From a virus (Duplodnaviria; Heunggongvirae; Uroviricota; Caudoviricetes), in IMG/VR virus record IMGVR_UViG_2531839195_000012: a stretch of DNA of 16,647 bases. One strand, 5' to 3'. How positions within the stretch are numbered: position 1 is the first letter of the stretch; each line of letters begins with the position of its first letter. The position numbers and the translations under genes were made by a program. The notes beneath the pieces were generated by a model. It saw only the letters and a program-made list of their open reading frames with translations. It was not told the DNA's origin and did no database searches. Shown here piece after piece: positions 5,632-7,089 of the stretch.

Positions 5632-7089
5632 CTAAATATTAAATGGAAGCCACCCTTTTTTCTCTGATAGTTTTATTATCACCAAACCATTTATTTCAGC
5701 TATCGAATCTGGATTCGGCCAGGAAGGTAAACTCTTCACAATTGGATAAATCTTCTCTATTTGTTCTTTATTTGCTGGTTTGCAATTACAGATTCCATAG
5801 TAATTCATAAATGCAACCATCCTAAAATAGTTGCCACCATCCCACCAAAAAAAGATTTTCCAAAAGTGTCTGCGCTCATGGAGAGCATATTTCCTGAGTC
5901 GTTTGAACCATATATATATATATATTTTCCGTTAAGGGAAATGCCTTTTGTTTGAGATGTGTATGATATTTCTTTAGCTAAAGAGATATCTTTCTGTCTT
6001 GCGAGAGTATCATTCAAAAATAGATTTTTGGATGTTGAAACGCCATTAAATATAATAAATAAAAAAACATGCAGTTTAGGTATTTTATAGAGCGAAAATT
6101 GCTTAAGCAAGAAAACAAAATTACTGCTACTATAGGCATTAAAACAAACAGGCGAGGTGGCGCCCCTGAGCCAACAACAACGATAAATATAACCGGAAGT
6201 ATATAAATGAAAATGATTGATGAAATCAAATAAATTGATCTTGTTTTTAATTTATATGTTAGGGTAAACATCAGAATTAATAAAGGAATCAGTAACCACT
6301 TGTATAGGTTTAAACCAGTGGGAGGATTGTTATAGAAGTTATATATATTATCTATGGCTGATTTAACAAGCCATTTAATATCGCTTGCATTTTGTATATA
6401 ATTTGAGATGTACTCGTTCGATTCAAGCGAAAAATAATGCTTGATAGCTTTGGTTAATAGCAGGTAAATTAAGGTAGATAAAGCTATGAGGGATAGAGAT
6501 AAACATGAACTATAAAAAGATTCACGAATATTTTTCTCATTTCGTATTATCGAATTTATCTGCAACCCAATGACGAATGCAATAATATATGTTACGAATG
6601 TTTGGTAGATTGCCATTGAAAGAATGGACAGTACTATACCAGAAAATATCACAATCCTATTTTTTGCGAGTGAAAAATAATTGCTGATATCGCTGCCAGT
6701 AGAAAAGCAATTCCCACAGTATCAGCTTGGTTAAGAAACTCTAATTGATAGGAGATCTGAGGGAAGGTAATAAATACTAACATACCTATCAATAATTCAT
6801 AAGATTCTAGCTTTAGCGATCTGCAGATTATAAATGCTGAAATGATGATAAAAGATAAGGCTATTAATGGTGTTATATAAAGTGAAAAAGGCTCAGGGAG
6901 AAAGTAATGTCGCAAAAAAGTGTGAAACCACCGCCCAAGCGTGATTGTTTGATAAAAATTATTTGTAAACTCGCCATCAATATTAAGTGTTCCATCGTAC
7001 AACCACCCCCAATAACAATAAATTGATATTGCAAAACATGATATGAAGGCAAGGAGATTTGCATTTTTAAATAAATTAATTTTAATCAT
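5632..7089 (-). pseudogene. serotype-specific O-antigen glucosyltransferase (GtrX-type membrane protein), fragmented into at least four frames
   Basis: Minus-strand ORFs 6649..7089, 6014..6652, 5805..6110 and 5632..5820 tile a 1458-bp span directly downstream of gtrB, the position type-specific gtr genes occupy. All are hydrophobic and AT-rich. The start overlaps the gtrB stop (ATGA). Confidence 0.6.
5910..5923. repeat. (AT)7 dinucleotide repeat inside the fragmented gtrX-type gene
   Basis: Direct reading ATATATATATATAT at 5910..5923; encodes the YIYIYG stretch on the minus strand. Confidence 0.7.

Follow-up and report, generated by a model that had tools for sequence, protein, structure and literature searches.

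The gtrABII operon and its divided third gene

The stretch of DNA analysed here (the window; 16,647 nucleotides, IMG/VR record IMGVR_UViG_2531839195_000012) carries two gtr modules, in the first of which the type-specific glucosyltransferase gene is divided among four open reading frames (ORFs). The window is the whole of contig AKMZ01000016.1 of assembly GCA_000268025.1, which it matches as the reverse complement. A published strain table assigns this assembly to Shigella flexneri K-404 from Bangladesh, and lists GCA_000213435.2 as K-671 and GCA_000213455.2 as 2747-71 (PMC6397287); both of the latter drafts are colinear with that of K-404. By DNA-level comparison, on which the assignment was decided, positions 5632–7089 (minus strand) are gtrII, the gene for the serotype II-specific O-antigen glucosyltransferase of prophage SfII, and the module that it closes is the gtrABII operon of this prophage. 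The other two genes, on the same strand, are intact. These are gtrB (7086–8015, 309 amino acids, aa), encoding a bactoprenol glucosyltransferase, and gtrA (8012–8374, 120 aa), encoding a small membrane ‘flippase’ protein; both were identified by identity to SfII and by matches to Pfam families PF00535 and PF04138, respectively. Neighbouring genes overlap by four bases at both the gtrA/gtrB and the gtrB/gtrII junctions, and gtrB is identical to its copies in CP055138.1 and GCA_014010515.1. The three genes and their flanks share 99.6% DNA identity with Shigella phage SfII across 3.1 kb, and gtrII occupies the third place of the gtrA-gtrB-gtr(type) order, with an att-like 64-mer and an integrase fragment just past gtrA. 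Colinearity with the phage extends over 718–8639 of the window (SfII 16968–24898, 99.57% identity), in the order tail genes, acyltransferase, IS4-family element, gtrII-gtrB-gtrA and att region.

The first-pass annotation of this DNA had described 5632–7089 as a fragmented type-specific gene of the gtrX kind behind intact gtrA and gtrB. The fragmentation and the intact neighbours stand, and so does the assignment to the serotype-specific Gtr proteins, since the fragments match PF14264 (Glucos_trans_II); the gene itself is, however, gtrII of SfII. The four ORFs, apparent both in the ORF listing and on direct reading of the sequence, tile the region on the minus strand and correspond in gene order to residues 1–143 (146 aa, 6649–7089), 147–343 (212 aa, 6014–6652), 343–415 (101 aa, 5805–6110) and 425–486 (62 aa, 5632–5820) of native GtrII. 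Thus, the deposited sequence holds three −1 shifts in place of an uninterrupted frame of 486 codons.

Alignment with SfII and with copies of the gene from E. coli and S. flexneri places three breaks, each at a homopolymer that lacks one base. Break 1 (6660–6665) reads T6 on the plus strand (A6 in the gene) where the reference has T7, affects gene positions 425–431 and leads to a stop after residue 146. Breaks 2 (6061–6067, gene positions 1024–1031) and 3 (5847–5853, gene positions 1239–1246) both read A7 (T7 in the gene) against a reference A8. Adding one base to each run yields a 486-aa ORF that is 100% identical to GtrII of CP055138.1, matches PF14264 with an E-value of 4.7e-30 and differs from the SfII record at three residues (I274M, H394Y, E433G). 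The three single-base shortfalls are the only differences within gtrII from either CP055138.1 or GCA_014010515.1; there is no substitution against either. A T6 run had correctly been noticed beside the first break, but the overlap there (6649–6652), taken to be ATGA, reads GTGA on the coding strand, and the GTG ‘start’ of the 212-aa ORF is an internal valine codon of GtrII.

The gene also holds a dinucleotide repeat, which had been reported as (AT)7 at 5910..5923. The tract is actually (AT)8 and spans 5910–5925 (minus strand). It is in frame, encodes Y-I-Y-I-Y at about residues 390–394 of GtrII, and none of the frame breaks lies there. The SfII record reads ATGTATATATATATAT (His394) at this place, so that the tract exceeds that of the record solely through a common His394Tyr polymorphism, and (AT)8 is equally present in the intact 486-aa gtrII genes of CP055138.1 and GCA_014010515.1. 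A role of the tract in breaking the frame was rejected on these grounds. Separately, the 2747-71 draft (AFHB01000004.1) has (AT)7 where K-404, K-671 and the modern assemblies have (AT)8, the sole difference seen in the length of a dinucleotide repeat. Such a change is unlike the usual error of flow sequencing, yet this draft has many other errors.

Homopolymer shortfalls across the contig

Shortened runs are not confined to gtrII. In a comparison with CP055138.1, the proportion of homopolymers that the window reads short climbs steeply, from 1/387 for 3-mers, 0/123 for 4-mers and 1/48 for 5-mers to 2/13 for 6-mers, 2/6 for 7-mers, 2/3 for 8-mers and 1/1 for 9-mers, and no run in the window is longer than its counterpart. 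Over 8.3 kb shared with GCA_014010515.1 there are two substitutions and seven indels, six of the latter being the loss of one base from A/T runs of at least six. More generally, near-identical modern assemblies differ from the window by 0–3 substitutions but by 6–10 homopolymer shortfalls. The indels are therefore confined to homopolymers, biased towards undercalls and steeply more frequent with run length, and they affect unrelated genes and multicopy elements alike, almost without substitutions. In the IS4-family (ISSfl9-like) transposase on the plus strand, A8 at 4440–4447 corresponds to an A9 run, with an intact 396-aa ORF, in SfII and every modern S. flexneri assembly, and A5 at 5102–5107 stands against A6 everywhere else, Logan run assemblies included, making this shortfall private to the window contig. 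The tail-fibre assembly gene has A5 at 1711–1716 (plus strand) where all comparators have A6, further shortfalls lie in the integrase (14484) and in an early gene of module 2 (12823), and an A7 run of IS600 in CP055138.1 is A6 in two of the window's three copies of the element.

Assemblies of nearly the same DNA were found by exact-protein look-up with a 270-aa acyltransferase fragment from the window, which returned seven modern or complete assemblies. All seven read T7/A8/A8 at the three gtrII sites and encode the 486-aa GtrII, the 396-aa IS4 transposase and a 144-aa tail-fibre assembly protein. CP055138.1 and GCA_014010515.1 share with the window both the (AT)8 tract and a particular acyltransferase haplotype (T8/A6 at two adjacent runs), and their gtrII is intact. 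The drafts of K-404, K-671 and 2747-71 are nearly without substitutions relative to one another and differ at scattered homopolymers, among them a gtrB run that 2747-71 reads as T6 and IS600 runs that K-671 and 2747-71 read as A6/T6. At the gtrII sites, K-671 and 2747-71 have T7 at break 1 and A7 at breaks 2 and 3.

These observations suggest that the division of gtrII is probably, for the most part or entirely, a homopolymer undercall artefact of an old draft assembly, and that the gene is likely to be intact in strain K-404. The draft would have read long A/T homopolymers one base short, as is typical of flow-based methods such as 454, and the three breaks would be undercalls in one 7-mer and two 8-mers. 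Shortfalls that go in one direction only, depend on run length and pay no regard to gene boundaries are the mark of undercalling and not of evolution; real decay would also have left substitutions. With two of the six true 7-mers, about one-third, short relative to CP055138.1, a miscall in the run of break 1 is unremarkable. We infer, here as for the sequencing platform and the serotype of the strain, that the shortfalls are most likely errors rather than mutations. The 2010–2012 draft set was probably pyrosequenced. The four-ORF split is thus real in the deposited sequence, yet most likely not biology. The first-pass annotation had offered phase variation or decay as the cause of the fragmentation and had not considered miscalling in the source assembly, which is the most likely one.

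Several observations weigh against an artefact. T6 at break 1 recurs in four Logan run assemblies (SRR061726, SRR059932, SRR061724 and SRR31555781), more often than purely random flow-type error predicts. As the surrounding sequence is the same in K-671 and 2747-71, which nevertheless keep T7, context alone does not explain break 1 as an error; it could be a real mutation of the strain or its lineage. The A7 that these two drafts have in common at breaks 2 and 3 could, in turn, go back to a real state in an ancestor instead of a common bias. Serotype Y and X isolates are reported to carry real single-base deletions in the T8 tract at 1024–1031 (PMC3728103), and the neighbouring acyltransferase shows real homopolymer frameshifts in modern assemblies. 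It is plausible that the gtrII tracts are real hot spots of mutation as well as of error.

The Logan run assemblies had been considered as independent confirmation of each break and were dropped from that role, since they are error-prone and selected by the query. Retrieval of the four T6 contigs depended on their encoding the truncated 146-aa product, a form represented by only four contigs in a 922-member GtrII cluster. Each has private homopolymer errors (A9 to A7, G6 to G5 and T8 to T7 among them), and their readings differ at breaks 2 and 3, both from the window and among themselves; being both homopolymer-error-prone and query-selected, these runs confirm little. Within the range that they cover, no substitution that would discriminate K-404 was found in them. 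Break 3 alone (T8 to T7 at gene positions 1239–1246, giving 428 aa + 62 aa) occurs in at least eight other Logan run assemblies (SRR30181150, SRR060521, SRR31555805, SRR30896062, SRR31555795, SRR31555804, SRR31555774 and SRR31555837), where it may represent a genuine allele of one clone or else a systematic error of the platform. The tract of break 2 is also shortened in E. coli FDAARGOS_144, in which a frameshift is annotated. As a separate observation, several of the SRR315557xx–8xx runs share a G6-to-G5 change in the transposase.

Inactivation and phase variation as alternatives

Alternatively, in the main rival reading, at least one single-base deletion may be real and due to replication slippage, most plausibly that of break 1 (A7 to A6, codons 142–144), which would truncate GtrII at residue 146. 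Type II glucosylation would then be lost by a known, irreversible route of serotype reversion, gtrX of the second module alone would set the O-antigen (serotype X-like), and the remaining breaks would have come from neutral decay afterwards or from miscalls. The T6 shared by the window and the four Logan runs is compatible with this, in particular that of SRR31555781, in which the rest of the gene is in frame (146 aa + 328 aa). Frameshifts, nonsense mutations and IS insertions often inactivate gtr genes (PMC3728103, PMC5610704, PMC6692546). Described defects of gtrII comprise the loss of one base at 1024/1031, a 2-A insertion at 1116, an IS1 insertion and missense changes, defective gtr genes were present in 2.8% of 1650 isolates (PMC3728103, PMC5610704), and frameshifts were present in 17% of correctly predicted strains (PMC6692546). 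The adjacent acyltransferase, whose homopolymer frameshifts in modern assemblies are genuine, points the same way. However, gtrII carries three indels and zero substitutions relative to intact alleles, and the absence of substitutions equally argues against the earlier suggestion of AT-rich decay. The contig-wide shortfall is one-directional, depends on run length and includes the IS600 copies; T6 occurs in no clean assembly, and all four contigs with the 146-aa form are error-prone. We therefore regard a genuine lesion as unlikely; if the frameshift at 6660–6665 is real, it adds one more allele to the known defective gtrII genes. Decay of a cryptic prophage, with all indels falling in dispensable genes, was abandoned as an explanation, given few substitutions against many shortfalls and the same defect in IS600.

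The idea that the A7, T8, T8 and (AT)8 tracts are hot spots of slipped-strand mutation, by which type II glucosylation is reversibly turned on and off, and that assemblies differ because tract length really varies within a strain, is highly improbable. Only marginally more credence is due to a looser version, in which A7, T8 and T8, and perhaps (AT)8, are genuine slippage hot spots that silence type II glucosylation repeatedly and perhaps reversibly. This version would provide a low-frequency, contingency-like route linking serotype 2a with Y and 2b with X, and would make some of the run heterogeneity biological. Repeat tracts in surface glycosyltransferase genes do drive phase variation in other bacteria, all four tracts lie inside the reading frame of the reference gene, and tract lengths vary among near-identical haplotypes (site 3 in at least eight runs, site 2 in FDAARGOS_144 and published isolates, (AT)7 in 2747-71). 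However, this variation follows data quality. Tract lengths are identical in all seven modern assemblies (T7/A8/A8), and shortening is seen only in data with other private homopolymer errors. Clean or flow-type data contain shortenings only, lengthened runs being restricted to the noisy E. coli SCU-124, so that tract polymorphism in both directions was not found among close relatives in accurate assemblies. Runs of 7–8 A/T bases are also short for an efficient switch. Moreover, three tracts, each one base short, are off at once, and no single slip restores the frame. The known phase variation of gtr operons, that of Salmonella, depends on Dam/OxyR control of the promoter rather than on repeats, which counts further against a contingency locus. 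The E. coli SCU-124 assembly (NZ_CP051706.1), although labelled ‘complete’, has dozens of homopolymer insertions across gtrABII, such as T11 and A10 in place of T7 and A8; its gtrII and gtrB are annotated as frameshifted, and the assembly is evidently noisy.

The second module, its surroundings and relation to known systems

The second module, on the plus strand, is made up of gtrA, gtrB and gtrX of SfX, judging from DNA and protein comparison. It comprises gtrA (15215–15577, 120 aa, PF04138), gtrB (15574–16491, 305 aa, PF00535) and the first 48 codons of gtrX (16504–16647), the SfX group 7,8 glucosyltransferase gene, which is cut by the contig end. The two gtrAB pairs share ~93% DNA identity. 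The gtrX stub, 144 nt of which lie in the window, is 99.3% identical to SfX (L05001) over the 150 nt available, and its 48 N-terminal residues are identical to those of a 421-aa product encoded beside a 305-aa GtrB in CP055138.1. Direct comparison detected no similarity between the N-termini of the stub and GtrII. This bears out the earlier reading of the gene from 16504 onwards as one with an unrelated N-terminus and a different specificity that runs off the window. If both modules work, gtrABII would glucosylate rhamnose I, giving type antigen II, and gtrABX would give group antigen 7,8. Serotype 2b corresponds to gtrII plus gtrX (PMC3972513); the predicted serotype of K-404 is accordingly 2b if gtrII is intact, and X-like if break 1 is real. 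Neither the serotype of K-404 nor a statement on gtrII in strain 2002017 was found in the literature searched.

The two modules are mutually inverted, and each adjoins an identical 64-bp att-like sequence, followed by the 3′ end of an integrase gene. The att-like sequence at 8576–8639 ends in a motif resembling a tRNA 3′ end (…GGTTCGACTCCTATTATCGGCACCA) and has a 100% identical inverted copy at 14862–14925; no complete tRNA was found. The integrase of module 1 (8636–8995) is truncated by IS600 at 8996, and that of module 2 is split by an IS600 insertion (13155–14417). The arrangement resembles prophage remnants, in tandem or rearranged, that share one tRNA site.

Between the tail genes and the IS4-family element lies the SfII acyltransferase gene (SfII_25; 2555–3603, minus strand), which by its position in SfII is presumably oacD and is split into 78 aa and 270 aa, with runs T8 at 3414–3421 and A6 at 3428–3433. 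Its frameshift, unlike the gtrII breaks, recurs in modern assemblies. T8/A6 is found in the window, CP055138.1, locus L026 and GCA_014010515.1, T7/A7 in loci L024, L025 and L028, and T8/A8 in locus L021. There are thus at least three frameshift alleles at two adjacent homopolymers, the intact SfII phage record being T8/A7; since the loci were retrieved with the 270-aa fragment, this set samples the frameshifted alleles and leaves out intact ones.

The insertion sequences of the window show further peculiarities. The second IS600 copy (8996–10257) has three run-length differences from the other two copies within 35 bp of its 3′ end (9026–9063), namely, A5 to A4, A6 to A7 and A3 to A2 on the element strand, which lengthen orfB from 272 to 306 codons. 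A search of 5426 E. coli genomes (6143 IS600 places in 2900 of them) gave no identical match to this 3′ end. An IS3-family element (~10301–11605), whose transposase ORFs are fragmented in the window, reads C4 at 10381 and G4 at 10532 where K-671 and 2747-71 have C5 and G5, so short G/C runs differ between the sister drafts too. The A8 form of the IS4-family transposase is also present in three complete E. coli genomes, where the gene is annotated as ‘frameshifted’, and in all older drafts; in E. coli it may be either a real state or a long-read error.

The locus adds little that is new, since gtrII and gtrX are well known, and so are serotype-converting prophage remnants in tandem and the inactivation of gtr genes through frameshifts. 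Its practical message is that the K-404, K-671 and 2747-71 drafts are unreliable at A/T runs of six or more for calls of pseudogenes, of phase-variable repeats and of serotype (2b versus X).

Among known systems, module 1 stands close to the SfII phage operon gtrABII (AF021347 / KC736978), reportedly the subject of a 1997 study by Mavris and colleagues. Gene order is shared with the window, as are the IS4-family element, the acyltransferase and the tail genes downstream. The window differs in that the deposited copy is one base short in each of three homopolymers and that the SfII prophage is a remnant bounded by IS600. An oacD-type acyltransferase is likewise known to adjoin the SfII gtrABII operon (PMC8973906). 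In contrast to gtrX of SfX, that of the window is represented by the start of the gene only, and the adjoining integrase is interrupted by IS600. The defective gtrII alleles of serotype Y, Yv and X isolates resemble the window copy in that they, too, arose by single-base indels, and one published site, where serotype Y and X isolates lack base 1024 or 1031 (Sun 2011, as cited in PMC3728103), is the very T8 tract of break 2. However, in what these sources relate (Sun et al. 2011 in PMC3728103; Gentle et al. / PMC5610704), each published allele has one lesion, established by targeted or Illumina sequencing and accompanied by a matching phenotype, whereas the window copy combines three lesions with zero substitutions and shares its class of defect with the rest of the contig. 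The indels of the window also resemble the undercalls of draft assemblies from flow-based sequencing (454 / Ion Torrent type), being limited to homopolymers, almost all deletions, far commoner in longer runs, scattered across unrelated genes and IS copies, and missing from modern assemblies of the same haplotype.

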